Assembly: GCA_040285855.1 (NCBI GenBank)
Contig: JAUFOQ010000002.1
Location: forward strand, 1,116,001 to 1,180,000
DNA: 64,000 bases
Origin: Eukaryota sp. GEM-RC1
Lineage: Eukaryota
Direction: 5' to 3'
A program made the position numbers and the translations under genes. Position 1 is the first letter of the stretch. Each line of letters opens with the position of its first letter. The notes beneath the pieces were generated by a model. It worked only from the letters and a program-made list of their open reading frames with translations, was not told where the DNA came from and made no database searches. Shown here one piece after another: positions 11,988 to 49,991 of this stretch.

Positions 11988-12073
11988 CTTTTGAAGTTTT
12001 CTGTCAGTTTTGTAACTCTCTTGTATTTTGTTCTTTATCCAATACTCTTCTTTCTTCTCATCTTGTACCATAG

Positions 12074-13350
12074 ATGCCTTCCTCACGATCTGCAAATACT
12101 CTACGGCAGCAGTTGAGGTTGTTGGAATGCTATGCTCCTAAATTATCCAACTCTACTCCTTTCACATTACCATCGCCACCTCCAGCATCATCAACATTCG
12201 TACCCAACAAAAATACCCTTAAATCCAGTAGGAAAACTTCTCGTATACGTGATTCATGGAACACTCTAACTGACACTACCCTTTCCAATAACACTACAAT
12301 TCTATCTCCACCTCATGTTTCTGGTCCTACCCCAAATCCTTTCTCTTCTCTTAAAGTACCCAAACTTCATCTTCCAATGGATAGTCTTGATACTATTTCT
12401 GAGGTCTCTTCACTTTCCGCTAATTCTTCCCACTTCAATTCTTGTTGTAATTCTGCTGTACAGAAAGTCTTCACTGAACTTACAACATTGTTTTCAGAAA
12501 TTCTACATAACCAGCAATCTCAGCTGGCAACTCAAAAAACCACTACTTCGCGAGCTTTCTTTGATGCCATTAATCAAATTGAAAAAGATTTATCAATAAT
12601 CACGATGCCTTAGTCACGTCATATACCAATAGACTACGGACTCTCAAGTCCAATCAAGGTACAAGACTAGTCAAATCAGCACGTCAACCTACTCCTAAAA
12701 AACCTACCCCAGTTGCTCCTTTAACAGAAAGAACTAGACCACAAACAGTTCGACATTCTGAACCTAAAAAGAAGAAAATAATTGAAATCCCTAAAGTCTC
12801 TTCACCTCAAGCCAATGTTCCAAATAAAGTTCTTAAAAACAAATCAGTTATGACGTTGAAGTTTAAAAAGGACGACAAGAACTCCAGAGATGTCTTTGTT
12901 CAAACAGAAGAGGACCAACCTCCAACAAGTGTTGCAGAGTTGTTCCGACCTTATCTTACTACTATTAGATCTGCTCTCGCTGTTCAAGAAGTACTTGTGT
13001 GTGATTTAGCTTGTACTCATTGTCTTTTACCCCCAATGTCTTCTCATAAGACTTCTTTTGAAGGGTTCTCTCTTAAGTGTGGTCATCTTGTATGTGGATC
13101 TTGTTTATCAAAGATCTTTGCTAAGAAAAACTCTGTTCAATGTAATCAATGCGGGTTTGTCTCCTCAAGAGAATCTCTTTGTCCCTGCACTCCTGTTAAC
13201 TCAGCATGTGCAAGGATAGATGCTTTGAGTGACATTGGGCGTTTAAGGAAGTTGTTAGATGAATTACTTACACAAAGGAAGATCTATCTTGGTCTTTTGT
13301 CAAAAAGACCTTTGATAAAAACAGACCAATGTCTAGTTAATTTGATTTGA
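12074..13350 (+). CDS. RING-finger protein with Ser/Pro-rich N-terminus (probably one gene, frameshift near 12580)
   Basis: CTHC..LKCGHLVCGSC..CNQC RING. An open Lys/Pro-rich stretch links ORF 12074-12613 to ORF 12850-13350. Confidence 0.6.
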
Positions 13351-13372
13351 TTTACAGTTCTTTATTGCACGG

Positions 13373-14552
13373 TTACAGAAGCGATTCCCACACAAAAACC
13401 CTTCCAAAACGAGAAATCAAGGATAATTCTGGTCCTTGGTCAAGTGAAACCGTACTTATAGACTCATCTATATCAACGATACCACAAAAGGATATTTCTT
13501 CTGAATCACCATTTGATTCTCCATCAACTGGTTGTAATTTACCTGAGGAGAGTGTGAATTTGTGGATCAGAAGTCTGCCTCCATCGCATCCAGAAAAGAG
13601 CTCATATACGTCATCTGATTGTCTGATTTTGAGAGAAACTGGCCAGTTCTGATGACCTGTTAGCTTCTCCGATTAATATGGCTTTGGAATTAAAAACATA
13701 TATTTGATCATCTTCAGCTCCACATATAACCAACAAACCATCTTTAGATCCAACGATGCTCTTAAAGGCAGGAAATCCCTTGACTTCAAAGCAAACGTGA
13801 CCAGTATGAATGTCAACACAGCGAAGTTGACCACCAGTAGAACAAGACCAAATATAAGTACATAGATTGAGGGAGGTTACAACAAATCCAGAAAGACAAT
13901 AACTAGAAAGCATAAATCTAGAAACAGGGTTTACTTGAGGTTGTAAATCTCGAGGTCTAGTAACTAAATAAGGAGTTAGAACTTGCGACTTCTTTTCATC
14001 CCATGGATGTTGTTTCGTGATTGACCAGTTGTATTGGTGTATACTTCCGTCAGCAAAAGATACAAGGAAAGAGTTGGGAGCAGGATGAAGAGCAATGTCA
14101 GTGACAGGAAACTGTGTAATCTCACCCATTGCATTATAGTGCCGGGAAAAAGTACGTCGTTGGAAAGGGTCAAAAACAATGACGTCACCTCTAGAGAATC
14201 CGAGAATAACGATGATTCTGTCATCACCAATGTATGTCAGCAACTTAGTAACATATGTAGGAAAAGAAAATCGATGTAGAACGAAACCAGACTGAAGATC
14301 TATCACCTCAAAGACATTGGCAAGAGCAATGACAAGAAGTAAAGGAGATTTAGTTGGTTCTCTATTATATTGGCTGAGTTTGGGGTCTGGTTGTGAGATA
14401 CACTCTTCAATTTGAGAAGTGATCGCTTGGAGACCATGGTATGGAATGAAAGAAAAACAAGAAGATCTGTAGTATGATAGTGGTCTATCGATAATTGGCT
14501 GGGATATTATGCATGTTAAGTCAGAGTAGGAAGAGTTGTATTGTAGAGACAT
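13373..14552 (-). CDS. WD40 protein, WDR20/CreC-like (frameshift near 13665)
   Basis: ILGFSRGDV..FDP, FLVSFADGSI..Y, NPVSRF, DGLLVICGAEDDQIYVF. The shifted frame continues KLTGHQNWPVSL..FGRVFVWESLL* to TAA at 13373-13375. Confidence 0.7.
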
Positions 14553-14862
14553 TGTTTAAAGGGTGTTATGGAACAACTTTAAGTGGAGATTGAAAATCAT
14601 CTCTGAACTTAAACATTGGATGATACATGTATTACATATGTACACTCTTCTTTAATTGGAGTACTTACATAATCAATTGGAGGAGAATACTGTGCTCGCA
14701 ATTGAGTCTAACTCAGTTGTTGATTTGAAAACGACGATTGTTAGCACACTGATTATGTTCAGTGAAGAAGTCCTGTGTATCACAAATGGCATCCATCTGA
14801 AATTAATATCTAGGGCAGTAAGGTAAATGCTACATGTTTGCAATCAAACTTTTGCCTGCATA

Positions 14863-15384
14863 ATGACTACCTTCAATGTTCTCATAATAAAACGAGATCC
14901 CTATACCAAGGTTTGGTTTCGCCACAGCAGCAATGGTGTGGTTGTTGTTGATGCTGTTGAGCGCCGTATCAAAGTTCTCGTGGATTCTATTCAGATGTCT
15001 GACTTTGGTATTGACAACTGTATTGCATTCAAACAAAGTGGGGAAACTATTTATGTGAAATACATGGACGGAGATCTGAAGGATCTGTTTGGCATGGTTT
15101 TCCCATCTATTGATCTTCTACAACAGTTCAAAGACTGTGTCGAACCTTCTGCTGGCCAATGCATCAATATTTCCCAAGAGTTTGAATCTCCACCACCAAC
15201 ATCTTCACAAATGTCTCAACCAAAAACACCAGATTTTACACTAAGCCAGAAGTCTAATCCAAAATTGTCTAAGATTCCTTCCGACACTGACTTGAAATCG
15301 ATGATTATCCAGCTACTTAAGGAACCGGACTTTCCATCCTACTGTGTTGCTGTAAGTTCTGTATTAGCACAGCTTTCTGGGTAA
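14863..15384 (+). CDS. Rec114/PHS1-like meiotic double-strand-break protein (tentative)
   Basis: Beta-rich PH-like N-half, SQ-rich linker, and C-terminal DLKSMIIQLLKEPDFPSYCVAVSSVL, which resembles the Rec114 C-terminal motif (L..CL.D..FP.FV..VE..L). Confidence 0.5.
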   Translation: MTTFNVLIIKRDPYTKVWFRHSSNGVVVVDAVERRIKVLVDSIQMSDFGIDNCIAFKQSGETIYVKYMDGDLKDLFGMVFPSIDLLQQFKDCVEPSAGQCINISQEFESPPPTSSQMSQPKTPDFTLSQKSNPKLSKIPSDTDLKSMIIQLLKEPDFPSYCVAVSSVLAQLSG

Positions 15385-15604
15385 GTGTTGTGGAAGTTTG
15401 GAAATATCCTTGTGAAGCCTTGAATACCCTATGGTTGGTCTACTACATACTAATGTAGTAGACCAAAAAGTGTAGTAGACCGATTGTTTGGAAACAAAAG
15501 AAACAAAACAGAACTGCATAAATGTTTGTCTTTGACTTAAAACGAAGTACATGTACTTAAAAACAGAGCTCTGTTTTATCTAGAATTTAGTCTGTTGATT
15601 AAAT

Positions 15605-15877
15605 CTAATGATTGTCATGTTTTTTTGCCTCTTTAATGAATGCTTCCTCCTTCCAAAGTTGTCTCTTAAATGCATGTTTTTCTGATATGTTTACTCTTTC
15701 TTTTGCTTCAGAGCCGTACCTTTTGGAAAATAGGCTTTCAATCTCACTAACAGGAGAATCTTTTGGTTCGACACCGTGATGACGTCTTGACGACCAATGC
15801 TTTAGTTTGGAGATTGTTTTTGGTGTGGGTGGGTCCTGGAGATATTTTTTGATTGTAGGGAGATCGTGTTCACTCAT
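15605..15877 (-). CDS. 90-aa unknown basic protein, paralog copy A
   Basis: Closely similar to ORF 23754-24026, with many synonymous differences. Confidence 0.8.
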   Translation of the reverse strand: MSEHDLPTIKKYLQDPPTPKTISKLKHWSSRRHHGVEPKDSPVSEIESLFSKRYGSEAKERVNISEKHAFKRQLWKEEAFIKEAKKHDNH

Positions 15878-16376
15878 TTAAAGTTCGTAAACTTGTCCGG
15901 CATCTTTCTATTGAATTGTTGACAAAATCAGTAGTGCTGATATAACGTACTACAGGTGAGTTCTCTTGAAAACAAAAAGTACAATCAAAACAGAAAAGAC
16001 TAAGAAGACCTAATTCATAATTAGCAGACCATTCGCCCTTTTTGGTAATGCTTTTGATTTAAATTCGGAACTGCAGAAATTTCAACACATCAGTTGTTGC
16101 TATCAAAAGTGCATTTTTGTGCTTGAAGTAGCACACCACAAGAAACAACAAATAGACAAAGACTATTGAAATAAACTATCTTTCGAACTAACTAATTCCG
16201 AAAAGTAGTTATAATTAAATAACTTGCAGAAATGGAATCTACATGTACATGTAGTATACAGTGATTTAAGAATCGCTCCTCCAAAACGACCTAATCAACT
16301 TCTTATCACAAATTTTCAAACAAAGCTAGAAACTCCTTAGTAGAACAATCAAAATTTCCGTATAAAGATACATTGT

Positions 16377-16565
16377 ACCGCAAAAGGGTGAAAGACGACA
16401 TGTATAGAATTCTGTGAATTTCATCCTCCCAAAGTAAATCCTGCTCCCACTTTGGTCATATCCATTTAGGCATCACAGACACGCTATGCTATGAGATGAT
16501 ACGGTGAGACTGAGATAGCTTCATACACATAGCGCTGCCCGACCGTTTATGGTGGACTGATTTCT
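16377..16565 (-). ncRNA. Candidate Fanzor omegaRNA scaffold
   Basis: Relatively GC-rich non-coding segment directly 3' of the Fanzor stop. Stems: 16482-16494 with 16521-16534, and CCAAAGT 16429-16435 with ACTTTGG 16449-16455. The position matches known Fanzor/TnpB omegaRNA loci. Boundaries are inferred. Confidence 0.55.
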
Positions 16566-19500
16566 TCAAGGGAGATCTTCTTCTTTTGACTGCCTTCGTT
16601 GGGGTTCCTCCTTTTCTTTTCTCGATCCAGTTTTAGGTGAACCCTGGTTTGACTCATCTAGCTGTGGACATGTTCGTATGTCGTGACCTGTTTGTCCACA
16701 TTCTCCACACTCTCTTTCTTTACGAGTCTTTTTCGCTGCAGTCTTTTTTCGATCTCTCTTCAAAGTAACATTACCACTCTCGAAATCAGTTGTTAAAGTT
16801 TTTGATCTCTCGAGAATAGATGGTCTAGCTTGACCTTTGATGGCGGCTTCGATAATGGAATAGATATTGATGGAAGAGTTGAGATCTCTATTCCAATAAG
16901 TCTTGCACCTTTGCATTTCACCAGCCCCCATGGTGTTGACTTTGCTTTTACTTCTACGGACTTCTTTATCTTCTCCCACTCGTCTTCAAAGCTTCTCTTT
17001 TTCGGTGGATCCTTACGGTTGTAGACCAGTACTTTTTCCTTGAGTTTCTTCTTCTTCCGTCTTATTTGACGCAGTCCTCTTGGGCCTAAAACTTTGATAG
17101 ATGGATCATTTGTACATAATCCAAATAGTCCTTGAGCAGCACACTTTGAACAGGACTTGCTGGTACGGTATTCGTCAACTAGAAATACCTTATACCCGAA
17201 TTTTCTTAACATTCTTCGGATTTCTGCTCCTCTAATAGCTGGAGTTTTACCTTTTCTTGTGTTTCCCTTAGAACTCCAGTCCCCGTAACCAAGGACAAGG
17301 TCTTCTGGAGATCCATAGGTTAATTTAAACCTTTCCAACATATTCTTTTCACTCTGTTGATTGTTGGAATAAATTTGAAACTTCCTTTTCGTAAACCAAT
17401 CGTCTTCATAGAAATCTCTCAGGTATACACAACTCCGTTCAGCTTCTTTGATGTAAGTCTCGAACTCATCACTGAAACAGGACCTTTGTTGTCCTCTAGA
17501 GACGGCAAGAGCAAATTCGTCGAGGATTTCTTGACCAGAAACAGTTCTACCATTAGAATTTTCGACTGTATAATCTTGGAGCGATCTTTCAGTTTCTGTT
17601 TTCGTAATTTCAAAGAAGGAAGTTTTTAGTTTTCTTCTTTCAGTCAACCGATATTTCTTGCTTTTTCGGTCATATGATCTCTCCCCAGTACTGTACCTGA
17701 AGCTGGCCAAAAAGTGGTTTGGTTTCAGCCGTACTCGTTGAGATGGGGTTTGTCTCCATTGGTTCAATTGTTTTTTTCTTTTTTTAATACCACCTTTTTG
17801 TTTTAGTCTCATTTCTGAAGGTAGCCGTTTTTTCGTGGGATTGTTGTCCGAACATGAAAATTCTTCAAATAATATCTCTTCATTTGTTTTTGGAGATACG
17901 CAAAACATCAAGTCATTTTCATTCGGGTCAATGCCAATTATTCTCTTTTCTGTCAGGTTCATTTTTTCAATGTCTTCCGACGTTAAAGAGTCAATATATC
18001 TTTCCGAAGATATTAGTGATTTTGCGGTAAAATCTTCAAAGGTGTTACCGTTTTCATCCAGCAAATCTTTTCGAATCATAACCAAGGAACAGGAAATGCC
18101 ATCTGTTACAATCGAAGAATACTTCAGACCAAATGATCGTGATGATGTAATAGCTGTTTCGGTAAGTACAGAGTCAAATACTTCCTTTCGAATAACGTTA
18201 GCGGAACCTTTCAAATTTAAAACTCTTTGGTTTATCCAAGCAGTATCTAATCTAATATGCTGTGGGACCAACGTCTTGGTCATTGGGAACGGATTATTAA
18301 CCTTTAAGGGTTTTCCATCAATTGAACAAAAAGACTGAATGATTCTGTTGATATAAACAGCATGAGAAAGAAATTGTAGTGGCTTGACTTTCTGAGCGTA
18401 GTAAAGATTCTTGCCTTTGGCAATGGTAGGGAACAAACAGAATTTTAAATATGCAAAAAAGATTAAAGTCAATTCTGATTGCGGGAAGGGGAAAATGATA
18501 TGATCATCAATTGGAATGTCTTCAAAGTTTCCATCAATAATCAGTTCTCTGATGGAATTTAATTTTGATTTCAATTCCTTCTTTAAGTGTTGCTCTTTAA
18601 TTTGTTTAAGACGATAGTTCTTCAACGTAACAATGTTAAAGTAGCGAAAGACATAGTTGTGGAAGTATTTCGCCAAATTGTTAGCATAATTGGTTTCAAT
18701 TTGTTTAGCCGTATAATGATAAATGCTTGACATAAACTCCAAATTAGGAAAAGAAATGTTGTTACTTCCAATTTCATGAGACAGAGAGTCAAGAATTGGA
18801 TAAAAATTATTACAGTAGTGTAATGCGATTTTCTGTTTCAAAGAATGATCAAATTTTTCATTTTGTAAAACTGCTTCTGCTTCTATTTTTGACATTTTCA
18901 AGTCGGAAATACCGCAAGCCTTTTTTTTCTCCACATACATTCGTCGGAGAACGTGCCTTATTGATCCAAGAGCCAAAAAAGGACTCAAATCTGGTAAGCG
19001 AACCGAAAAGTCTTTGTAATAATAGCAGATATTACAATTCTCAGAAGACTCAGAATCATTTCCAATCATGGACAACGAAGGGTCATCGTGCAGTAACATC
19101 AATTCTCTTTCTTTGACTATTGATTCAGCTTTGATTCTTCCAAAATCTTCAAATTCACGTAGAAGCAAATGCTTTAAGAAGGTGGTTCCCCTCACAGTTG
19201 CTTTTTGATTTCGTTTAGAACAAATTTTAATTAATTGAATGTTTTCATAATCTCTGAAAACCTTATCCAATCCTTTTTTTACGACTTTAATCGGAGGGCG
19301 GTCTAAAACAAGCTGAATTTCTTCATCAAAAAAATAATTCTTCAATTCGGACAACATCTTAATTTTGTTCAGCAAATCTTCAACCAGAGAGTTGCGTTTT
19401 CTGTCATCCATCCATAACTTGGAAGTTTTAATATTTTGAGCAAGCAAAGTAAACTCCCTCTCCCGTTCAGGGCTAACCGTTGATATTTTTAGGATTTTTT

Positions 19501-20341
19501 TGAATTGGTTGAAGTAAGTTTTGAATTCAGTTGGTGATAAAATTAAATTAGGTATTGCCTTTTGAAACAATTTGGAGCAAACATTTTCTAAACCTCTACC
19601 ACCTTTGAAAACATAGGTTGACTTTACAACATTTGCCATGTCAAGGGAAATAAATGGTCCAAATTCGCTTTGCTTACACCATCTATAGAACCAGATGGGA
19701 ATAAAAGGCCTGAATGGCTCATCCACATTAAATGTGGTGGAGATGTTCAAAAGTTTACATCGTGCAATTAAAAACGGGAACAATAATTTTTCAGAGTTAT
19801 AACTTATAAGCAATCTAGGCTTTTTCTCGGACAGTAAAGATATAAGACCATTAATCATGACTTCTTCTGATGGAAAAGTAATTGTTTGAACACCATCAAA
19901 ATCACTTGTTTTTTTGGTACTGATGACAACAGTAGAAACGAAATTGGTGTAAATAAATGTGAGGACAATAAGGATGATTTGATCATCCTCCGCATTTGGT
20001 ACCAGCTCTGGCCTGGACACTTCAATTTCTTCACTGATTGTTGGAACTTCAGCAGCCTCTTGTTCTTTAGAAACAATTTCTGTTGAAGATTCTGTAGTAG
20101 TGCATTTCCGAAGAGATTTCTTCTTAACATTGAAAAGGAGTGGGGTAAGTCGTTCACTATCGGTAATGACCGTTTTAAAATCAATAAGGCAATACAGTGG
20201 GATGTCATCTACAGAAGACAGGTGAGACTTCTTAAGAGGCGGGGGAAATATTGTGTCACCATGGTTGTGACAGGATGAACCACAAGGATAAAGTGTATAC
20301 TCCGGGCCGTGAACTACTTCGGGAAGACTGACAGGAGACAT
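16566..20341 (-). CDS. Fanzor: Fanzor1-type RNA-guided RuvC endonuclease with N-terminal inactive PolB-exonuclease-like domain and C-terminal CCHC knuckle (~1258 aa after repairing a 1-nt deletion at 16910-16912)
   Basis: RuvC-I IIGIDPNENDL (D at 17927-17929); LVLGYGDWS; rearranged RuvC-II VDEYRTSKSCSKC (E at 17171-17173); WGLVKC-(frameshift)-RCKTYWNRDLNSSINI RuvC-III (D at 16884-16886). Fanzor1-like N-lobe motifs QIETNYANNL, HIRLDT and SIVTDGISCSL. Confidence 0.9.
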
Positions 20342-21435
20342 GGGAAATAACAATTGTCGACATTGTGATTCGTTCTCGTCACTTTCCTCTCGACAGGATT
20401 CAGTTTCCTACTTGATTATTAGTTTGTCAACAGTTTACTTTCCACTTTACAACTCGGTTAATTTATGGCAAAACTTTGTCTCCTTCTCTAGATACGGTGT
20501 ACAACTATCCTACCTCCTCTCAACAATTTTAGTCATTATACCTCACTCTCTCAGAATATCTTCATGTTAGTTTCATTCACGATTCTATCTTTTAAGATGC
20601 GCCTTTTCCGGTCTCTATTCAGGCCACAATGATCAGAAGTCTTTTGCCAGAAACTCAAGACTCGTCTTCCTTTTAGAAACACTCAGTCCCCATCATCAGA
20701 TCTTCCGTTGTTCCTACTTTTACTTCATTTTGACTTCTCTCAAACACCTTGAAAACAAGTGTGACAACATCCAGTCCTCTCTTTAAGCATTCTATATGAC
20801 TGATTATTGCTACTGTGCGATAGACCAATGATATACAGTCTTAAAAACCCAATGGTTATATTACTAAACAATTGGAAATTGCAGAAGCAACTGCCTTTGC
20901 GAGACAAATATATCGGTAGGTAATGATCCCTATTTGCACACATTGGTTAGTTCTAATTACGAATAAACAATATTTATCTCAGAAATTTAAAATCACATAT
21001 GGGAAATACAACTTCAACTTACTTTAATGGAAGAAAGAAGCTACCTCGATTGAATACGAAGGAAGTGAAGTTCTGCACTAGATTGTACTTCAGATAACCT
21101 TAGGAAGGATAATGGCATGTATAAAAGGACACAACAGACCACAGAAGAGGAGATGGGGGAATTGTTGGGGAGAGGAAAGGGAAGGGGAATAAAATTCACG
21201 CAAGAGGATCCTCACAGAAGCATCATCAGAGTCTCTGATGACTCATCAGAAGATGGATCGTCCCCATCCAGAGAAAGGACCAAACATCCCTCACTTTGGT
21301 GTCTTCCGAAGCGTGGATAGACATGCTCGTTAAGTCGAGTCTTGAGTCCCAAAGCATTCCAAAAGTATATCCCATAAGTAAAAAGAGTTTGTGGGAATTG
21401 GGTGTGTGGGAGAATTGGTAAAATGGGGTTACAAG

Positions 21436-22050
21436 CAATGTGCGCAAATCTTTGGTACGTACCGTACGTACGGTACGGATCGGTACGTACCGATTTTGTT
21501 TATCCGTACCGATGTGATTTTATTTTATTTGAAGCCTATTTATGATTGACCTAAAATGATTTACAAATACAAATTTTGGAGTGAAGGTTTACTGGCTCGT
21601 CAAACATAGTACTATTGCAATTGGCTTCTGTGCATTCTAATAGTTTAGACACAAAATTTTGGGGTTTTTGGGCTCTTTGTTATGGTAAATTTCGTAGTAG
21701 TCACTCGTTTATTGCATTGTAAGTTGAAGATGATTTGTTGTTGATTTTATGTGATTCCTGAGCTTCGTGTGAACTAATGTCATTTTGGGAAAGTTGTGGT
21801 CATCAATGATGTACCCCAAATTCGACTGAGTGTAACAATCGTGATCTTGATATTCTGAACCATGTCTAACAGTTGAATACATGACGATGGTAACTGTCAA
21901 AATTTCACATTGGATCATCATGTTCAAAATAGTAATAATGTATTTTAGTCGGTCAAAAGTACAGTACCGGTACACGTACCGTACGTCCGTACGTACGGTA
22001 CGGTACGGTACGCCGAAAATCGCTCCGGTACGGAACATTTGCGTTGCATG
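21436..22050. mobile_element. 615-bp non-autonomous hAT-like element (MITE) with CCGTAC/GTACGG subterminal arrays
   Basis: 8-bp TSD GTTACAAG at 21428-21435 and 22051-22058. Imperfect TIR CAATGTGCGCAAAT vs CATGCAACGCAAAT. Palindromic cgtaccgtacgtacggtacg clusters at both ends. Confidence 0.8.
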
Positions 22051-22122
22051 GTTACAAGTAGGGATATTCACCCAAAATGAAAACTACTGTTGCATTTTTC
22101 CCACTAGCACTGCTTCTAAAAT

Positions 22123-22784
22123 ATGAACTTTGATAACACACTTAAAGTCATTTGTGTCGGAAATGGTACTGTCGGTAAGACAAGTCTCTGTATCCGTTTC
22201 TGCAATGGCAGCTTCACCTCGACTTACAAAAAAACTCTTTCAGTAGACTTTCTTGAAAAATCATTGTACATAGATTCTCTAGACTCTGAGGTAGTCTTCA
22301 ATGTCTTTGACACCGCTGGACAAGAAGAATATGACAGCCTTACATCCACATACTACAGAGGTGCTCAAGGAATAATTATTGTCTTTGCTACTGACAACAG
22401 GGGAAGTTTTGAGAGCATAGATGAGTGGGTCAAGAAGGTTCAAGCTCATTGTGACGATGTTCCCACAGTTTTGGTTCAAAACAAAATAGATCTGGTAGAT
22501 AAATCTGTGGTATCGGAAGATGAAGCTCAACGAAAGGCTGAAGAGCTCGGAATTCCCTTATTTAGGACATCTGCACTTGATAATGCTAATGTCAGTGATG
22601 GTATTTACTATTGGTTTTATTAATCCTAGTTTTTGAATATCTAAGTACAAAATATTTAAGCGAGACACACGAAGAAGAATCCATGGATGAAGACCAACCT
22701 GTAAATCTTGATGAAAACGAAGAAGAAACACAAGAAAGGACACGCAAGTTCAGTCTGAAGATGTTTAAGTGTTCAATACATTAG
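22123..22784 (+). CDS. RAB23: Rab23 small GTPase, two exons (22123-22600, 22630-22784)
   Basis: GNGTVGKTS, YKKTLSVDFLEK, DTAGQEEY, VQNKIDL. Splicing a 29-nt GT..AG intron gives NVSDVFEYLSTKYL and the C-terminal prenylation motif CSIH*. Confidence 0.9.
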
Positions 22785-22863
22785 AAACTGCAAAATAAAA
22801 CATTTTATTCATCGTCGCTGTACTTTATGCGTCACTTAGCAGTAGTTGAGATATCAGTGAAGC

Positions 22864-23388
22864 TCATGCTCTATTACATAGTGTGGTATACTTGGAAGAT
22901 GTTGTTCGTGTCCAAATAACTACAGTGCTTGCTCTGAAGTGCTGCCTTGATAACCTACCATTCCCCCCTCCCAATGTGAGCTGCTTGGGACTGTCAAACC
23001 TTTCAGTGCTGAACAGACGAAGCATACCAGTAACAATGATTACAAGACCAGAAAGTAAGCTGACTTTGTTCTCAGTAACTGTAAGACTTCCGACGAAGAT
23101 GTAAAACAAAGCCCGTCCTCTGCTGAATTGAAGAAATGGTAAGTGATCTAGAACGCTTTGGAGCCCCAGTGTAGACAGTACTCTTAGTTCTAATAAACAA
23201 ATGAATAATCCAAAGACACCAGTATATAAGGAAAGTATGAAAGAGTGTATATGGAAGACGTTGAAGATGTTGAGGAAGTGGAAGACAGAGGATGCAAAGA
23301 GAAGGATTCCAGCAACAACACAGAGCCATTTAAGTGACAATCTAAATGTTGTTGTTCTTTCGTTGGGTTCCAGTACAAATTCAGGCAT
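22864..23388 (-). CDS. COPI-associated/TVP15-like Golgi membrane protein
   Basis: Four hydrophobic segments and FLQFSRGRALFYIFVGSL. Probable start is MPEF at 23388. Confidence 0.75.
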   Translation of the reverse strand: MPEFVLEPNERTTTFRLSLKWLCVVAGILLFASSVFHFLNIFNVFHIHSFILSLYTGVFGLFICLLELRVLSTLGLQSVLDHLPFLQFSRGRALFYIFVGSLTVTENKVSLLSGLVIIVTGMLRLFSTERFDSPKQLTLGGGNGRLSRQHFRASTVVIWTRTTSSKYTTLCNRA

Positions 23389-23753
23389 ATAGATGGAACA
23401 AGACCGAGAAAAGTGATCGGTTTTGTTTAGATCATCGCATGAAAGTTCGCAGATCGGAAAAAAGACTGTTCGGTACAACGTTGAGAAGTTCTTCACAAAT
23501 TTTGCAACCACATTTTGACGACGTCTTTCAAAAGATATCGATCTCTACAGTTGTTTAGCCTGAACTTCCTTACTTCCTTATTGCACCTATCTCTACGTTT
23601 TGATAATTTCGTTCTAGAAACTAGTGTCATCATTCATCTTCAGTAAAATTGATTATACTGTTACTCGATTTAACACAGTTAAGTATCTTTTAGAGATACT
23701 CTATACTAACTTTGTCAACTAATTCCAAATTCCTAAATCTGTAATTCCTTAAA

Positions 23754-24026
23754 ATGAGTGAACACGATCTCCCTACTATCAAAAAGTTTCTCCAGGACCC
23801 ACCCACACCAAAAACAATCTCCAAACTAAAGCACTGGTCATCAAGACGTCACCACGGAGTCGTTCCAAAAGATTCTCCTGTTAGTGAGATTGAGAGCCAC
23901 TTTTCCAAGAAGTACGGTGCCAGCGCTGAGAAAAGAGCAAGCATCTCAGAGAAGCATGCTTTCAAGAGAGAACTTTGGAAGGAGGAAGATTCTATTAAAG
24001 AAGCAGAGGAACACGAAGAACATTAA
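23754..24026 (+). CDS. 90-aa unknown basic protein, paralog copy B
   Basis: Inverted paralog of 15605-15877. Confidence 0.8.
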   Translation: MSEHDLPTIKKFLQDPPTPKTISKLKHWSSRRHHGVVPKDSPVSEIESHFSKKYGASAEKRASISEKHAFKRELWKEEDSIKEAEEHEEH

Positions 24027-24986
24027 TTTATGTATTGTATAAATTAATACAAGCTTAAAATACGATTTATAATTCAATTTCAAAGAATAACAAAACAATA
24101 ATGACCTAGAGAGATACTAAAACATCTGCTCTAATGACAATTCACGTGGATAGTGGATATCGTTAAGACGAGACTACGGAAAAAACACGCCGTAGATTAT
24201 GATACAACAGGTACTAACTGCCATTACATCATGATTGAATAATACACGTGGTTGAGCCCAAAACAGATTTATAGTAAAATTGGTTTTTGATTCTCTTAGT
24301 GGTTTTGCAGTTTCCATTTTAGATTTTAAAACAAATGATTAATACACAGTTGAAAAATAGTTTACAAGTCCTGTCAAACGCGCAAAAACACACACTATTC
24401 GCATTTTTAAACACACTTGTAGCATCACATTGAATTTGATTGAATTCTGTTTGGTGTTCAAACGCGTGTGAAACAGATGAACGGAATAGTATTTAATCTT
24501 CGTTCATTTAAGAGTAATCTTGGGAAACAGATCGGTCTACACGAAAATCGTGAGAATAGACCAAACCTAATATATCAACTGAAGTAATATGTACTTAAAT
24601 ATCTATATCTTTGTGTTAGCAGTCAGTTATCGATAATGAAGGTAATAGCTTTAATTGGTATTCAAAAAGGTACCCTTGAAAAGTGTGAACGTATAAAAAC
24701 AAACCAACAATCCTAAGACCAAAATTAACGACTTCATCCCTATTTGGTAAAAGATTACGATTTTCAACATTAACCGATAATTACAAGAACATTTGATCTT
24801 CCCTTCAAACCAGTTATGGTATACATTGTATTCAGTATTTTATGTTGTTCAAAGTAGCAATTTCGTAACATTGATATAACAGTCATTCAAGAAGATTCAA
24901 CCCTGAAAAGTTGTTAAGATCTTACAAATCACCAGTCAAACCCTCAACAATCACACTCAATCATAATCATTATTTATTTCCTTCAT

Positions 24987-26297
24987 CTATTCGACCTTAT
25001 TCTTAACAACAAACAGTTTTGCTATTCGTTTTGCCAACTTGATTCCAAACACAACGACCGCAACAAAAGCTACTATCAATAAAGGCTTCATAAAATCCAA
25101 TACACCAGAATAAGAAAACTTTACAACAATATCCCCCAATGGAGTAGTAGTTGCAACATTATCAACCTCGCACACAAAGGTCTCACGTCCAACAATATCC
25201 AAATGAGACATCACCGTAGGCCCCTTATAACACCTTGCATTGATAACCTGAGAATTGAATCCAATAATCTTGGCAAACTGGGGGAGAACAATAGTGGTCT
25301 TAGCATGAGTGAAGAAGACGTTTTCAAGTTGAGGGAAGACAGGAACTCTAGCCTCCTTAGTGAGCATCATTTGTTTAAAATACATGCGACTAATGGCACC
25401 CTTGATGAAGAACTTGAAATTCCAGCCACCAAATAGAGGGAATCTAGGTGCAACAGTGAAATGAGTTTCAGATTCAGAAAGTTGAGTGTACTGAGAGGTG
25501 GAGATGTTACCAATGTAATCACGATAGACCAATGAGTGAGGATTGGTGAAAGGGATCAATCTCATTGAGATTAAGCTCATTGCAGTCTTCGCGTCATTAG
25601 GTTTCCTTTGATGATCAAGACGAGACCATTCACCAACCAATCGAGAACCCTTGTTAGAAAGATCGAACTCATCATGATAGAACCCTCCTAAGAGAGGTTC
25701 TAGGGTGAAGGTACGTTCGGTGGTTCCAATGACGATGGGATAGGGAGCGGTACAGATGGCGTTGAGGGGAGCTGAGGACTCATCGGACGTGGGAGAGAAT
25801 GAGAGTTGGTTGGAGTCAGCACCAGACATGATTCCATTATCAGCAACTGAGGCGCACTTGAGAGAGGTTCTTTGACGTTCAATGGTATAGGGAGAGGGTA
25901 CAACAGAGGATTCGATCAGTTGGACATACTGCTCGTCTCCTTGTTTGATCTCTTCAGGAACGACAGTAACAGCGTCCATACAGACATAGGACAAGGATAT
26001 TTTGGCAGAAGATTTAGGTGACAAAGGCTCCATGTCGACCGTGAGAGTATTGTCTGATAAGTGACAGGTCACAGGTTTGTCGTTGACACTGCACGAAAGA
26101 ACGGAAGAACGAGTTGCTCCATGAACAGAGGAAACGATATATTCTAACTTGGAGACCTCCTTCCCTTCATTATTGAAGACATTAAGACTTACATCTACTC
26201 TAGGATGTGGGGTGGATAGATCGATTTGACGATCAAGGTCCTTGACAACGATCGCACAAGAAAGAGTGATCAGAAGGAGTCCAAGTAGGAGATGCAT
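24987..26297 (-). CDS. RPN1: Ribophorin I (OST subunit 1)
   Basis: Signal peptide, EIKQGDEQYV, WSRLDHQ, YRDYIGNISTS, PRFPLFGGW, HLDIVGR, C-terminal TM. Confidence 0.93.
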   Translation of the reverse strand: MHLLLGLLLITLSCAIVVKDLDRQIDLSTPHPRVDVSLNVFNNEGKEVSKLEYIVSSVHGATRSSVLSCSVNDKPVTCHLSDNTLTVDMEPLSPKSSAKISLSYVCMDAVTVVPEEIKQGDEQYVQLIESSVVPSPYTIERQRTSLKCASVADNGIMSGADSNQLSFSPTSDESSAPLNAICTAPYPIVIGTTERTFTLEPLLGGFYHDEFDLSNKGSRLVGEWSRLDHQRKPNDAKTAMSLISMRLIPFTNPHSLVYRDYIGNISTSQYTQLSESETHFTVAPRFPLFGGWNFKFFIKGAISRMYFKQMMLTKEARVPVFPQLENVFFTHAKTTIVLPQFAKIIGFNSQVINARCYKGPTVMSHLDIVGRETFVCEVDNVATTTPLGDIVVKFSYSGVLDFMKPLLIVAFVAVVVFGIKLAKRIAKLFVVKNKVE

Positions 26298-41993: not shown

Positions 41994-44900
41994 ATGAGCC
42001 TTCGATTCGTCGTATTCTGTGTGCTGGGGCTCTGCGTGAACTTGGTCTACACATCAGATCTCACCATCGATAAGGACACTATCCTCCCTTCCCATAGCCA
42101 ATTTAACAACGTTGTTTGGAATTCAGGAAGCCTAGCTGTTTCTGATCTCAAGATAACTGGTACTCTTTATCTTTCAGCAGGTTCATCAGTTAAATTGTCT
42201 GGAGAGGTGTTCGCCAATTCTGTTGTCGTTGACGGTCGCGTGGATCTACTCAGTAACGCGAATGTCTCCGTAGTTCACACGTCCGACCTTTCAATTGAAT
42301 CGAGGTCATGTCTTGCTAGTACAGTCCCTTTTACCGTTTCAAATCAAATCACCGTCACTCTTGGATTTCTATCCATTGATACGACTGAATACGCCCTCTC
42401 TCCCTGATCGCTGGGTGATAACTAAGTCTGTAGTTCTGCTCGTCAACACATCGGCTGTTCCATTTGATGAGCCCCACACATCGACGTCTGTCGAAATATC
42501 GAAAAGTGTCTTTGAGCTTACATCTGGCCGTCCTCTTCAAGTATCTGACTCCTTATCTGCCGTACATAGCAGTCTACTTGGCCATGACGCTGTACTTCTC
42601 GAAGATCTTGTAATGGCTTCCGCTGAACTTCAAGCCTCGAAAGTTGTTATCAATAGAAACTCTAAACTATCTCACTTTGTCTTTCTCCGTCCTGCTACTA
42701 CCATCCTTAATAATGGCTACTTGTATATTGGAAACTTCAACGCCTTTTCCCTTCCTTACATCTACTTCGAAGACCATACGGGAATAATCAATGATGGAAC
42801 CATGCTCATGGATGATCTTTTAGCGATTTACCGTTACAACTTTGACTGCTCCGCTCATAATAGTTCGGCTTTTCTCTGGAACCGGGGCTCTCTCACGATG
42901 GAATCGTCGAATGTAGCAGGAAAAGTTTTTGAAACTGACATTTACTTTTCCAATGATGGTGACTTCTCTTTAGCCAAGGATCATTCTTTCAGATTGTTTG
43001 GAGGGTTTGACTATGATCACCGTCATTTGGGAAGTGGTAGCAATACATTAGCTCCATCAACTAGGTTTTACCTACATCGGGACACATTGCATCTCACTAC
43101 TGCTGATTCTAGCTTACTGGGACCTCTTTCTGTGTTCACATTGGAAACTGATGATGCTATGTTGATTATTGATGGTGTGTTTGATCTCAATAGACGTCTT
43201 GACCAAATATTTGGTCGAGTTGATTTTACAGCCAATGCCACGTATGATCTTGATCAGGTTATTGCTACTAATAATGTCGTATACAACTTCTTTGGTGACC
43301 AATCTCCCAAAACAAATCACCTAGAACAACTTAAGCTTTCTGACAACTCTTCAGTTACATTTCATCGAATTTCCAAAGACTTCATTTTCGAGTCAATTTC
43401 TGTCATAGATAATGCTTTACTTACTATCTACTGTGCTAATGGAACTAGTATAATCCACAGGTTTTTTATTGAATTTGGAACTCTCGTAAGGCTTGGGGGA
43501 GGATGTGGATTTAGTTTTGAAGATGAATTCATTCTTGAAGGAGATGTTGAATTTGATGACGTTGGTGATGACATACGCTTTCCTAATTTGACAATACCAG
43601 GTAATATTATCAAAATACCATCCATTAATGGTTCTTTTATCGTTGATGGGGCTCTGAACGTCACCGACGGAGATTTAATCATAGGAGATATCGAAGATGA
43701 TTTCACTGTCAAAGGTCCTATCTTTTGTGATGGGGGAAGGATTATTGTCGATAGTATTGGTGGAAACTTTGAAGCAGAAGAATTGTATTTGAACAATTGT
43801 GAATTTATCATCTCTTTTATTGGGGGCAATGTGACGATTGGTGATGGTGTTACTGCAGTCGATTCTACTTTAATACTTGAAGTCATTGCTGATTACTTGG
43901 AAGTGGGTGACTCAATTGACTGTAAAAGATGTACAATTAGATCGTCAACTGGAGACGCTGACTTTAAGAGCAAGATTGTGATTGAAGAAGATTCTATTTT
44001 TGACCTTGCCATTATTCATCCAAATAGGAAAGTCGTATTTGACCTTGACCTATCTGATTCAATTTTTAATTTAGAACACAATTCTACAGATATTACGTTC
44101 ATAGATGCTGATTTTGTCAATGTCGTAATTGATATAGTAAATACTGGAAATGATGGTCATGGAGATTTAACATTTGATGACGACTTATTCTGTAGTCAAG
44201 GACAGATTACTATCAATTATATTTCAACAAATTTTAATGTTGGTGAACTGGTTCTTAATAATTGTCATTTTGAAATTTCTGGAATCGGACAAAATGGAAC
44301 AATTTCTAAAAATATCTCTGCCATCGATTCTACTCTAATTCTCAATAATATCGCTGATTACTTGGAAGTGGGTGACTCAATTGACTGTAAAAGATGTACA
44401 ATTAGATCGTCAACTGGAGATGCTGACTTTAAGAGGAAGATTGTGATTGAAGAAGATTCTATTTTTGACCTTGTCATTACTCATCCAAATAGGAAAGTCG
44501 TATTTGACCTTGACCTGTCTGATTCAATTTTTAATTTAGAACACAATTCTACAGATATTACGTTCATAGATGCTGATTTTGTCAATGTCGTAATTGATAT
44601 AGTAAATACTGGAAATGATGGTCATGGAGATTTAACATTTGATGACGACTTATTCTGTAGTCAAGGACAGATTACTATCAATTATATTTCAACAAATTTT
44701 AATGTTGGTGAACTGGTTCTTAATAATTGTCATTTTGAAATTTCTGGAATCGGACAAAATGGAACAATTTCTAAAAATATCTCTGCCATCGATTCTACTC
44801 TAATTCTCAATAATATCGCTGATTACTTGGAAGTGGGTGACTCAATTGACTGTAAAAGATGTACAATTAGATCGTCAACTGGAGATGCTGACTTTAAGAG

Positions 44901-47900
44901 GAAGATTGTGATTGAAGAAGATTCTATTTTTGACCTTGTCATTACTCATCCAAATAGGAAAGTCGTATTTGACCTTGACCTGTCTGATTCAATTTTTGAT
45001 TTAGAACACAATTCTACAGATATTACGTTCATAGATGCTGATTTTGTCAATGTCGTAATTGATATAGTAAATACTGGAAATGATGGTCGTGGAGATTTAA
45101 CATTTGCTGACGACTTATTCTGTAGTCAAGGACAGATTACTATCAATTATATTTCAACAAATTTTAATGTTGGTGAACTGGTTCTTGATAATTGTCATTT
45201 TGAAATTTCTGGAATCGGACAAAATGGAACAATTTCTAAAAATATCTCTGCCATCGATTCTACTCTAATTCTCAATATTATCGCTGATTACTTGGAAGTG
45301 GGTGACTCAATTGACTGTAAAAGATGTACAATTAGATCGTCAACTGGAGATGCTGACTTTAAGAGCAAGATTGTGATTGAAGAAGATTCTATTTTTGACC
45401 TTGCCATTACTCATCCAAATAGGAAAGTCGTATTTGACCTTGATCTGTCTGATTCAATTTTTGATTTAGAACACAATTCTACAGATATTACGTTCATAGA
45501 TGCTGATTTTGTCAATGTCGTAATTGATATAGTAAATACTGGAAATGATGGTCGTGGAGATTTAACATTTGATGACGACTTATTCTGTAGTCAAGGACAG
45601 ATTACTATCAATTATATTTCAACAAATTTTAATGTTGGTGATCTGGTTCTAAATAATTGTCATTTTGAAATTTCTGGAGTCGGACAAAATGGAACAATTT
45701 CTAAAAATATCTCTGCCATCGATTCTACTCTAATTCTCAATAATATCGCTGATTACTTGGAAGTGGGTGACTCAATTGACTGTAAAAGATGTACAATTAG
45801 ATCGTCAACTGGAGATGCTGACTTTAAGAGCAAGATTGTGATTGAAGAAGATTCTATTTTGACCTTGCCATTACTCATCCAAATAGGAAAGTCGTATTTG
45901 ACCTTGATCTGTCTGATTCAACTTTTGATTTAGAACACAATTCTACAGATATTGTTTTCCCTAATATCAATGTTCTAAGATCTGTTATAGAGTTTGTCAA
46001 TTCTGGTACAGATGGTCACGATAACATTACTATTGAAAATAATTTTTCTGTAGCCAAGGGGAAATCTCTATTAATTACATTTCGAATGATTTCAATGTCA
46101 AGTCCCTGGATTTACTCAAATGTGATTTTATGATCTCTATCATTGGTAGAACTGCCAACATCTTTTCTGACATTAATACTGTAGACTCCTATTTGAAACT
46201 TGCTGAGGTCGGTCAATCTGTAGTAGTTTCACGATCGTTTGTGTTAACAGATTCGGTTTTTGAATCAAATTTGGATGTTTTCGATGCTAATAATGTCACT
46301 ATCACCAGATCTTCATTTTTCTTAAATTCTGTCACTTCTGAAGCTCGCTTCAAAGATCTTTTAATGGTATCAGGGGAATTCAAAATTTCTAATGCTAATA
46401 CCACTTCCTTTTACGGAATTGTATCAGTTTCCGATGGTGACGTCAACATCAATTGCTCTGTTTTAGAAGGTCATCACGAATCTTCAATCTCTTTGAGTGG
46501 AGGTTATTCTGTCTGGGATGTTGACGTGATCAAGTTTTCTACCAGTTCATTCAACTTTTTTACAGGATCAATGCAGTTAACCACTGATAACGTTGACGGT
46601 AAAGATTCACGTATTTCTATCGCAGACGGTGATTTCTCAATCAACTGTAAATCTACTGATTCTACTGCGGCTGCTCTTTTCACTCTTGAGACTTCCAAAA
46701 TGACCATAGATAGTACATATTTCACAGGCTGCTTCACTCCAATTGTTCATTCTAAACAGTGTGAGATGGATTTGCACCGAGTTAAAGTGTATGATTGTGA
46801 TGCTCACGTTTTATTTGATGGATCAGAAACAAACTGTCTTATTGAAGATTCTTCTATCAATTCTGTAAATGGTTCTATTTTCAACTTCGTAACACAATCC
46901 AAGCTGACCATCAACAATTTGTCAGTGTCTCATACAGACACGTCATCTTTCTTGACTTCAGTTGACTCTTCTGTATTTGGTCTTGTTAATTTGACAATTG
47001 ATTCTGTTGATTGTGAAGGAATTCTTAGCGCTTCTTCGAGAAGTTCAGTATTAGCTGACGGTATTTCTCTCTCAAACACACATGGTGAGCCTTTCTTTAA
47101 ACTGGATTCATCATTTATGATTGCCAATCGCATTACTGTCGACAATATTCAATCAGATAATCTGTTCCAGATACAATTAGCTGACCTAAAGCTCACCGAT
47201 CTTTTGATCAAAGACTCTCGTTTTGAGTCGTCAATATTCCAAATGACTTCTTCAAAAGTTGATATTGATTTTTCAACTTCTCTTCTCCAAAACTCAGATA
47301 GCCAAGTTCTTATCTCCCAGCGTCATTGTAGTACTGAGATTGATGGTTTAGTATTACTGCCTTCGTTGAATCTCGGAGATTGTGCTATTAGATCTTCCAG
47401 TTCTTCTTTAAGACTTTCGAACTTGATGTTTGAACGGTCAAAATCACCTGTCTTGAAGAGCTCAAAGTCTACAGTAGTGATTGATTCACCTAATTTATCA
47501 CAGTGTCATCCAAGTACTGCTTTAAGCTATAATCTGTCTGATAATAATAGAGAAAATTCCCTCTTCCAATTCTATGGGTCAAAGGTAGAGTTCTACAATG
47601 TAAAAGCAAATCAATGCAGATTCCCTTTCATTTTTGGGGTTGACAGTGAACTTTTCTTAAATGGTTCGTTGTTTGAACGTTTCTCTGATAATGTAATCCA
47701 TTCTGACAGACAATCAACACTGATTGCTTACAACTGCTCCTTTGAAATGGGGCTCAAGACTTCAATTATTTCTGATTCTGCAGATTCTCTTGAGTTGAAC
47801 CACTGCAAATTTAAAGATAATCAAGGATATAATGGCACGGGTGTGTTCGCAACGAATTGTCAAAATATTGAAATATTTGACTCTGAGTTCATTAAAAACC

Positions 47901-49991
47901 ATGCTGATAACGATGGTGGAGCTCTCCATTTTGTTTCCGATGAGAATCATCAAATTCAGCTTACTAACAATCTTTTCCAAGAAAACAATGCAATGAGAGC
48001 TGGTGGTGCCGTTTTCATCAATTATCCCTCTATTTTTAATATTTCAAACAATTCTTACATTTCAAATACTGCCGATGGATGGGGTGATCTTTATGCAACT
48101 AACCCAAGATATCTAGATACTGAGTTTGAAAATCCAGACTCTACAGCTTATCAACGTAACATCATCATCAAGGTACGTGATGGATACAATCAATTTGCCA
48201 TCTTTGGGCCTCTTGACCATCAATCTCTGACTGTCACTCCAACTAACGAAGAAATCGTGTTAATGGAACGTCCGGTCATTAGACCATCTCACGAGTTTGT
48301 CACTTCTGCCAACATTACAATGCGTGGAGTTACCGGCACTTACAATCTTTCTGTAAGTCATCCTAGTTATCAAACTCATCTCTTACCCTTCACTACTGGT
48401 ATTTGTCCTTTTGGGTCATGGCTTTATTGGTGGTTCGTGTGCTCCTTGTCCTCCTGGAACTCAGAGTTCCCCATTTGGAACCTCTATTTGTATCAATTGT
48501 GAAGCAGGAATGTGGTCTTCTTACGGAGCCCATGAATGCAGTCCATGTTCACCTGGAACCTATAGACCAACTAGTACTTCCCCTGCGTGCCAACGGTGTG
48601 AACACGGCTTCATTGCGGAATTACGTGGAGCCACGGAGTGTCGTCGTTGCTCTCTCAATCAAATGTCTAATCACGGTCGTTCTTCGTGCGAGTGTGTATC
48701 AAACTCTATTCCCAATTGGGCAAGTGGAGAGTTAGTCTGTGATCCTTGTCCAACTGGAATGCTTTGCTTTGGAGCTGATGATACTTGTTTGAATGCTGGT
48801 TATTGGAAGGGTGCTAAGAACAATGAAATATACCGTTGTGCACATCAAGGTTGTCTCGGCACGTGTCACAATGGTTTGATGCCTTTAGTTCTCACAGCCC
48901 CTCCCTCTGGTAGATGCAACGACTATCATCAGGGATCTCTTTGTCACGAGTGTGTTGAAGGTACCTACATGATTGCTGGTCAGTGTACAAAGTGTTGGAG
49001 TCCTATTGGTAGTGGTATCGTATTAGGAACTTCTATAGCCGTTCTACTTACTTTGATTTACGGTATAACTTCTCATGGTGCCAGGGTTGGCATGTACTTG
49101 TCTGCGATTCGATTTGTTCAAATGGCTGTTGCCATTGTAGTTATCTGTTCTGTCACCATTCACTCTTCTCTCTTACCTTTTTACGGAGCTTTCAGAACAG
49201 TTTTTGTTGACGTTTGGAAGACTTTACCAGTAATGTGCTTGGGCTTGGCCTCTAGGGATTATCCAATGGAGTTTTACTTGTCATGTGGCATTGTTGTTGC
49301 TATTTGTCTTGGAATAATTATAGTACGGCCTAAAGAACCTCGAAAACACTATACATCTAAGATCTTTATATCTGAACTTATTCTCATTGTGCTGCTTGTG
49401 CTACTGCCTGCACTTGCTTTCAACGGTCTGGGAATGTTCTCGTGTAATTTTGTAGACGGAGATTTCATTCTAGAAGCTGATTCATCTCAAAATATCATGA
49501 AATGTTTTTCTAAAGATTGGTTTGAAATGCTTGGAGTACTGGGAGGAGCTGTTGTGGTTTTCCTTATTGCTTTTAAGTATTTGTTTTCCCTTAAGGATAG
49601 CAGTTCATCAGTTCCTGTCCGAAAGTTCTTTGGTTATAGAAAAATGAAGTATGAACGAATCTTCCTGCTCTTTTCGATCGCTGTTACTGGAGTTTTATGG
49701 GCAATTCCGGCTGGTCTTCCTAGATTGTCAATGGCTTTAATCACTATGATGTCATCAATCATATTTGTAGCAAAATCGCGACCTTATATTACTGATGTTA
49801 TGAATAACGCGACCATTATTTCAAATATTGTCTTGCTACTTTTGGTTTTCCAAGCTATCGTGATTGAACTAGCAAGGTTCACTCGGCATTACGTTTGGGA
49901 TTCTGAATCTACCAGTGCTTTAGTCGTCGGACTACTGCCATTAATCTGGACAGTTTGCCTGGTAATCTTGGGGCTTAGGTCTTTTTTTTGA
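41994..49991 (+). CDS. Very large (~2,660 aa) surface protein: signal peptide, beta-solenoid/PMP-like ectodomain with 155-aa tandem repeats, Cys-rich GCC2/GCC3-type repeats, multi-pass TM domain (about four frameshifts)
   Basis: Consecutive same-strand ORFs 41994, 42295, 46130 and 48411. Motifs F.KNHA..DGGAL / FQENNA..AGGAV and CPPGT/CEAG/CSPGTY repeats. Many hydrophobic helices at the C-terminus. Confidence 0.8.
43860..45950 (+). repeat. Coding tandem repeat, 465-bp unit, 4 full copies + 1 partial
   Basis: GATTACTTGGAAGTGGG recurs at 43891, 44356, 44821, 45286 and 45751. Confidence 0.95.

Follow-up and report, generated by a model that had tools for sequence, protein, structure and literature searches.

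Why should the RNA-guided nuclease of a mobile element carry the proofreading domain of a DNA polymerase? The question is raised by a gene in a 64,000-nucleotide stretch of contig JAUFOQ010000002.1 (positions 1,116,001 to 1,180,000 of the forward strand) from the Eukaryota sp. GEM-RC1 assembly GCA_040285855.1. We call this whole stretch the window and count all positions from its first letter. The original prediction, made from the letters alone, had described a Fanzor nuclease joined to a catalytically dead exonuclease-like domain of a family-B DNA polymerase (PolB) in one open reading frame (ORF), a description that is now backed by profile, fold and family evidence. The Fanzor1 gene in the window is one copy of a multicopy gene and has an N-terminal PolB proofreading domain in its single reading frame. 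The open frame lies on the minus strand, as do all parts of the gene described below, and spans 20407 to 16793. From the ATG at 20341 it encodes 1182 amino acids (16793..20341), with no interruption between the exonuclease-like part and the Fanzor and with only the final ~37 codons out of frame past a frameshift.

The exonuclease-like domain covers approximately residues 49-335 (19337..20197), as delimited by profile, model and fold comparison. Residues 83-246 (20095..19604) match the Pfam family PF03104 (DNA_pol_B_exo1) with an E-value of 6.3e-10, scoring 39.3 bits where the cut-off is 23, and a profile built from the exonuclease family finds solved family-B polymerases at an E-value of 2e-10, with close bit scores for archaeal PolB (43.8) and yeast Pol delta (41.7). 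We modeled the domain with AlphaFold2 from a 14-row alignment, which gave a mean predicted local distance difference test score (pLDDT) of 53.5; the core blocks reached 66-91, and values fell below 50 in the insert following ExoI and from model residue 264 onward. Prediction from the single sequence was unusable (pLDDT 35), and full-length alignments were discarded because they misplaced exonuclease fragments. Every row that Foldseek listed for the model against the PDB was a family-B polymerase (best E-value 9e-6), and the named rows among viral models were likewise polymerases (best E-value 1.7e-7). VIA-align superposed the model on human Pol delta (Z 12.8, root-mean-square deviation 3.5, 134 aligned positions), human Pol epsilon (Z 12.4, 3.0, 130) and the 9N polymerase (Z 12.1, 3.5, 125). 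The PolB exonuclease fold that had been expected in the N-terminal region is thus found by profile and by structure. Since scores for the PolB of archaea, eukaryotes and viruses are similar by both routes, these comparisons do not tell the donor groups apart. The domain carries two inserts, an acidic disordered one after ExoI and a helical one before ExoIII. No match to the polymerase domain PF00136 was found behind the exonuclease in the window protein or in the collected relatives P0008, P0028 and P0177, where the Fanzor follows directly. The ESM Atlas yielded leads only (0.85 for PF03104 clusters and 0.75 for a Fanzor-type cluster), and a complex prediction of the exonuclease domain with the Fanzor body, in which alignments were not used, scored 0.01.

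The Fanzor1 body extends over approximately residues 350-1143 (16913..19294) and includes basic inserts. As had been anticipated, the C-terminal part aligns with Fanzor RuvC, its best solved matches being SpuFz1 (E-value 2.9e-14), GtFz1 (5.7e-11) and PpFz1 (3e-10). The RuvC-I aspartate, Asp805 (17927..17929), lies in IGIDPN and is followed by proline; SpuFz1 also reads DPN at this place in the alignment, and the motif is given as DPG for Fanzors in PMC10711439. The relocated RuvC-II glutamate, E1057 in VDEYRTSKSCSKC, stands six residues ahead of the first CxxC of the zinc finger (E1057-YRTSKS-C1064; together DEYRTSKSCSKC, 17141..17173), and its position before the zinc finger is treated as Fanzor-defining in PMC10711439 and PMC3627910. 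By every testable sequence criterion the window protein is a member of Fanzor1, and the Fanzor is predicted to be an RNA-guided DNA nuclease.

The same fusion recurs in related genomes. At 90% identity the window protein clusters with 12 other members, all from Eukaryota sp. GEM-RC1, 94-99% identical and distributed over several contigs. A full-length relative from Eukaryota sp. TZLM3-RCL, which has 12 cluster members, is 29% identical across 93% of the length of the window protein and has both domains, and further families at 28-45% identity occur in GEM-RC and in Skoliomonas sp. RCL; 16 of the 17 closer matches that we looked up belong to such families. Skoliomonas sp. GEM-RC, most likely the host of the window copy, is described as a soda-lake metamonad that is anaerobic and free-living (10.1101/2023.05.03.539051). 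A search of representative sequences gave 1110 matches at an E-value of 0.001, of which the best 150 were examined. Among 216 collected proteins, the exonuclease-domain profile was found in 37, comprising 35 from the Skoliomonas set and two complete PolB proteins. The exonuclease region and RuvC-I lie in a single chain in 10 collected proteins of three families, so misassembly cannot explain the fusion, and the original view that the two parts form one gene holds. We also observed that P0017 and P0035 have adjoining locus tags (GEMRC1_007297 and 007298) and are pieces of two Fanzor families, which suggests nested or adjacent insertion.

Beyond the Skoliomonas set, a Pfam scan found PF03104 in none of the 34 collected relatives of at least 700 amino acids (from 127 rows). 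Two word-based searches with the exonuclease alignment, each scoring only the ~8000 best candidates, returned four and three matches, amounting to five GEM-RC proteins and two PolB and no other fusions. Pattern scans of viral contigs (four stretches for P0008 and 97 for the exonuclease alignment) and of metagenome contigs (445 stretches) gave no relative, weak negatives in both cases since these scans need near-exact motifs.

At its C-terminus the window copy is broken. A frameshift of one base, in a short run of A within the second CxxC (16908..16912), near 16910, places the rest of the gene in a separate frame that ends at 16566. This out-of-frame part (16566..16907) holds the last cysteine of the second CxxC, the RuvC-III motif WNRDLN (Asp at 16886-16884) and a basic tail with a CCHC zinc knuckle (CGECGQTGHDIRTC, 16668..16709), the last identified by its motif and by a Pfam zf-CCHC_6 match that is below the cut-off (E-value 0.0015). 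The earlier claim that the gene bears all Fanzor hallmarks therefore stands in frame for IGIDP, the relocated glutamate and the first CxxC, while the second CxxC and WNRDLN lie behind the frameshift. The published Fanzor pattern, D-X(125,275)-[TS][TS]xx-C4 zinc finger-X(5,50)-RD (PMC3627910), accordingly has all its residues in the window copy, but with the last cysteine and RD out of frame; it is in frame in seven RCL proteins and in the GEM-RC relatives P0200, P0189 and P0035. Seven RCL proteins run in frame through to RuvC-III, and of the six proteins of the window's family that extend into the C-terminal part none does so.

Some features of these breaks may point to sequencing. P0026 has the same frameshift as the window copy, and four other proteins break earlier at an A5 run. 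Of the 12 other aligned family proteins (P0026 aside), seven end beside a run of at least five bases, against a background of 20% of windows of sequence. In the window itself, a tandem-repeat host gene has lost one T from a T5 run at ~45856. For the named organisms, the published assemblies are described as nanopore-based and short-read corrected (10.1101/2023.05.03.539051). Taken together, breaks at homopolymer runs, the lost T and a nanopore-based assembly make it plausible that the frameshift near 16910 is an assembly error. It is possible that it is instead an inherited break, since it is shared by copies that are not independent.

Is the domain an active exonuclease? In the window copy all four acidic metal ligands are replaced (K56, V58, L187 and K326). 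The ExoI positions K56 and V58 (20168..20176), in place of Asp and Glu, were placed in two ways. A conserved cysteine anchors the family register: both RCL families read C-x5-D-x-E (HCYLFIDIET and NCFVSFDVET), and the window protein has K-T-V at the same place. The structural alignments start with model residue 8 at position 135 of 9N, residue 9 at 270 of human Pol epsilon and residue 7 at 283 of yeast Pol2. Together with the catalytic aspartates, which we take to be 141 in 9N, 275 in human Pol epsilon and 290 in yeast Pol2, and with the strand taken as gapless, these starts put the catalytic Asp at K56 and the Glu at V58. A register at D61/E63 suggested by automatic alignment was ruled out by the structural starts and the conserved cysteine, and the D54/K56 (DFK) of the original prediction lies two residues too early. 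The losses it had claimed at ExoII and ExoIII are upheld in the window copy: at ExoII, L187 (19781..19783) replaces Asp in the alignment (YNSEKLLFP against YNLNNFDIP), and at ExoIII, K326 (19364..19366) replaces Asp in a register anchored on the downstream KVVK, a region where the model is unreliable.

The word dead fits only one part of the family. In a residue census over the 35 exonuclease-bearing proteins of the Skoliomonas set, all 22 proteins of the window's lineage are without the ExoII Asp. At ExoI, the members that include the site have K/V, R/I or Q/D, so that one family retains an Asp at the position of the ExoI Glu; at ExoIII, the residue is K, R or Q in the members that extend there. 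By contrast, all 13 exonuclease-bearing RCL proteins keep the acids at every covered site, and 10 of these cover all four. Judged by these residues, the catalytic loss is confined to the window's lineage, and the RCL sister families are intact.

Trees of the two parts suggest how this distribution arose. A careful tree built from 17 rows of the middle region of the Fanzor joins the nine Skoliomonas rows in a single branch (100/100), within which the RCL families together with GEM-RC family G (P0208 and P0035; 98/95) stand apart from the remaining GEM-RC families, the window's among them (99/98). A quick tree of 50 of the 90 candidate rows also gave a single Skoliomonas branch, with a Shimodaira-Hasegawa-like approximate likelihood ratio support of 100. 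A tree of the exonuclease domain separates six dead from three intact rows (99/97), with long branches flagged and the catalytic columns kept in. The intact site is ancestral in PolB, on which the direction of loss depends. The simplest reading of these sequences would be a single capture of an active domain, followed by a single loss of catalysis in a lineage that then radiated.

The dead domain does not appear to be decaying. Over 127-137 aligned positions, the dead exonuclease cores of different families are 46, 41 and 44% identical, compared with 45% for the Fanzor cores of two dead-exonuclease families; in the intact pair the exonuclease is 39% and the Fanzor 43% identical. For family C, the exonuclease part (P0187) was tied to its Fanzor part (P0200) by inference through the overlapping fragments P0074 and P0031. 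The dead domain has thus not outpaced the nuclease in its rate of change, which speaks for a retained role other than catalysis, and to judge from conservation the dead domains are probably still in use.

Several families have gathered further modules. A 2A-like motif, D[VI]ExNPGP, stands ahead of the exonuclease domain in eight proteins of three families (P0001, P0011, P0028, P0177, P0111, P0186, P0187 and P0204), where composition alone would give 0.0002. This is the motif of 2A ribosome skipping as described in 10.64898/2026.09.24.754024, and 2A motifs are reported at the N-termini of non-LTR retrotransposon ORFs (PMC3708506). No such motif was found in the window copy in the three minus-strand frames of 20200-21700. 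Family C has a Ulp1-like protease (PF02902 above the cut-off in P0187 and P0111), and the C-terminal zinc knuckle motif is present in 15 collected relatives.

What might the domain do for the element? We favor, tentatively and with belief and doubt close to balance, the reading that the Fanzor cuts empty element sites and the exonuclease domain takes the resulting 3' end, which the intact lineage would trim and the dead lineage would hold. The literature on other Fanzors suggests the first step, in which an RNA from the right end of the element would guide a cut 16-21 nt from the target-adjacent motif (TAM), and recombination would copy the element into the site. According to PMC10432273, SpuFz1 cleaves after base 16-17 on the non-target strand and after base 20-21 on the target strand; the same paper gives the view that TnpB breaks lead to copying of the element via recombination and suggests that Fanzors may act likewise. 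Such a cut would leave the TAM-side strand with a ~16-nt 3' tail that mismatches the left end of the element on the repair template. This tail would have to be removed before synthesis or second-end capture, and a tethered 3'-5' exonuclease would be placed to remove it in cis. Yeast Pol delta proofreading is reported to chew invading 3' ends by up to ~40 nt and to excise 3' non-homologous tails (PMC9477423), and DEDDh exonucleases are described as accessory genes of DNA transposons (PMC3627910, PMC9587614). In the dead lineage, the change from acid to Lys or Arg at ExoI and ExoIII (K56/K326 here and R/R in a second family) may have left a metal-free pocket for nucleic-acid ends, which could cap or hold the strand while host enzymes trim it. 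Binding of DNA ends or of host proteins had been suggested as possible functions in the original prediction.

The element would be non-autonomous and moved in trans by a transposase. None was seen by inspection of the ORFs of at least 60 amino acids in 12000-25000, neighbors taken without a Pfam scan, in line with the original statement that no transposase adjoins the gene. SpuFz1 elements are likewise described as lacking one, and three other characterized loci seem to lack inverted repeats (PMC10432273). In its fullest form our reading describes a natural two-enzyme RNA-guided editor, in which the captured domain would process the end of its own cut after 2A-like release from a leader, and a sister lineage would have turned the domain into a dead end-binding clamp; we think this possible, while inclining to doubt it.

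Several observations weigh against a role in end trimming. Engineered fusions of TREX1, TREX2 and T5 lowered editing by MmeFz2 (PMC12923547), and a T5 fusion lowered editing by SpuFz1 (PMC13434818), which argues that an exonuclease is not generally helpful. The dead lineage is successful, with 26 members in one cluster, so trimming would be dispensable. No window-family protein among the six that cover the C-terminus reached RuvC-III in frame, by which the family may be nuclease-dead in vivo. No intact exonuclease domain was seen among GEM-RC proteins, so that intact and dead are partly confounded with species. The window copy shows neither terminal repeats nor a target duplication above chance, its best inverted flank match being 10 nt, within the shuffled range of 9-15. 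The omegaRNA and right end would be expected at 16260..16565, on the minus strand, a place with a short hairpin at ~16429-16455. No Rfam match reached the gathering score, and the folding is not unusually stable (z 0.89 for 16330-16620, and no stretch below 16760 with a z under -1.6).

If the domain does not act on DNA ends, it may be a structural or regulatory module serving autoinhibition, stability or docking to host replication or repair, like the inactivated exonuclease-polymerase module of Pol epsilon, with catalysis incidental. The retention of the fold without catalysis in at least four families would suit such a module, as would the proposal that inactivated PolB modules serve complex assembly (PMC2669801) and the report that an inserted domain of PpFz1 binds host cyclophilin (PMC11423790). 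We nevertheless consider it unlikely, because two RCL families whose exonuclease cores are only 39% identical keep all four acids, which points to selected catalysis, and because basic residues at the former metal site would better fit nucleic-acid binding.

That nucleic acid might be RNA, the domain trimming or protecting the 3' end of the omegaRNA and the dead form acting as an RNA-binding pseudonuclease. The DEDD fold includes RNases as well as dead RNA-binding members such as Exuperantia. The dead lineage also has the CCHC zinc knuckle, and Fanzor1 guides are described as having a defined ~15-nt 3' extension past the target duplication (PMC10711439). All profile and fold matches are, however, to proofreading domains of DNA polymerases, and ordinary Fanzor1s process their guides with no domain of this kind, as the 34 long relatives lacking PF03104 illustrate; we regard an RNA role as improbable.

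The domain could also be a passenger, captured without a role and retained only through its position between the start codon and the Fanzor. These ORFs do gather modules (the 2A-like peptide, the Ulp1-like protease and the zinc knuckle), and one whole lineage has lost the catalytic residues. An open frame alone, however, requires neither 41-46% identity nor preservation of the fold along branches that exceed one change per site, and we find this explanation quite improbable. An assembly or gene-calling artifact that joined a fragment of a polymerase to an ordinary Fanzor is scarcely credible, for although the element copies are full of frameshifts, the identical order and junction recur in several divergent families from two separately named organisms.

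How does the fusion compare with known systems? It shares with the Fanzor1 proteins SpuFz1, GtFz1 and PpFz1 (PDB 8gkh, 9cer and 9cf0) the RuvC-I D-P-N, the RuvC-III RD, an alignable central region, the relocated RuvC-II glutamate six residues ahead of the zinc finger, and multicopy occurrence without a neighboring transposase. Unlike them, it has ~300 extra N-terminal residues (the PolB exonuclease), a long basic insert in the zinc finger and a C-terminal zinc knuckle, accompanied in sister families by a Ulp1-like protease and a 2A-like peptide, and the proteins reach 1200-1500 amino acids, compared with the 400-700 stated for Fanzors in PMC10432273. The exonuclease resembles the PF03104 proofreading domains of Pol delta, Pol epsilon and archaeal and giant-virus PolB in its fold and ExoI-II-III order, and in RCL also in its four acids. 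It differs from family-B polymerases in having no polymerase domain behind it and, in the window's family, none of the four acids.

The P, piggyBac and KolobokD transposons with DEDDh proteins also pair a DNA transposon with a 3'-5' exonuclease for proposed end trimming (PMC3627910, PMC9587614). The KolobokD exonucleases resemble TREX, Exuperantia and ERI1 and accompany a DDE transposase, whereas the present one is of PolB type and fused to a nuclease of RNA-guided type. Engineered T5-, TREX1- and TREX2-Fanzor fusions embody the same design idea but are artificial and lowered editing, whereas the present fusion arose in nature and has diversified along with its Fanzor. Pol epsilon's inactivated module likewise kept a PolB exonuclease fold after catalysis was lost (PMC2669801), but sits in a cellular replicase rather than in a mobile-element nuclease. 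The word exonuclease is absent from the main text of PMC3627910, PMC10711439, PMC10530073, PMC10432273 and PMC11423790, and the available text of 10.64898/2026.06.03.729735 and PMC12338488 has nothing on such a fusion. Nor did we find one in the literature on Fanzor, TnpB and Cas12 fusions and N-terminal extensions, a scope that excludes supplementary catalogues and subscription papers. A natural fusion of a Fanzor with a proofreading exonuclease has apparently not been described before.

The surroundings of the gene add some further observations. The flanking ORFs resemble host genes, among them a putative Rab GTPase. Two small ORFs of ~90 amino acids, 84% identical and inverted (15605-15877 on the minus and 23754-24026 on the plus strand), bracket the Fanzor and two host-like genes, and one of them has a weak DUF7110 match. 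We rejected the corresponding 278-nt inverted pair (15606-15883 and 23748-24025) as terminal repeats, since it spans only the small ORF and 25 of its 41 differences fall at third codon positions; the two ORFs are probably paralogous genes. Between the Fanzor and the next gene, short-repeat clusters rich in GTAC and CGTACG lie ~525 nt apart (21455-21510 and 21964-22026) and could be a small element or the left end of the Fanzor element. The palindrome TACATGTA has 15 sites in the window (for example at 1133, 5240, 11423, 15548, 16240 and 16246), apparently mostly intergenic, and is possibly a host promoter or terminator motif; the intergenic sites at 16240 and 16246 bound the expected omegaRNA place.

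More than 30 kb away lie two hAT-like ORFs with DUF659 matches below the curated cut-off, each split over two frames. The first occupies 52005-53831 and 51490-52194 on the minus strand, and the second 57164-58708 and 58705-59649 on the plus strand, with imperfect inverted arms at 56920-56961 and 59890-59931. A weak 31-nt match (blastn E-value 0.28) joins the region upstream of the Fanzor (20986-21016) to the right arm of the second hAT-like gene (59883-59913). Within it is an exact inverted 18-nt word (20999-21016 and 59883-59900), which we note as no more than a lead toward ends shared with an hAT transposon, as an hAT-mobilized Fanzor element would have. A very long gene on the plus strand (42274-49991) has five 465-nt tandem units over three frames.

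If our reading is true, these proteins would be the first natural OMEGA nuclease with a built-in end-trimming module, together with an evolved negative control. The 2A-like peptides and the Ulp1-like protease extend the set of modules seen on Fanzor proteins. For tool building, where engineered fusions harmed two Fanzors, a natural fusion that has diversified with its nuclease may show a working geometry, and natural copies with intact sites and an unbroken frame are on record (KAL0221043.1, KAL0224962.1, KAL0225525.1 and KAL0227451.1). What Fanzors do in their hosts is described as an open question (PMC10432273), and a fused 3'-5' exonuclease makes one such role testable. If Fanzors home by recombination, the ~16-nt 3' tail from TAM to cut must go; the family with the intact site should then remove this tail, and the dead family should not.

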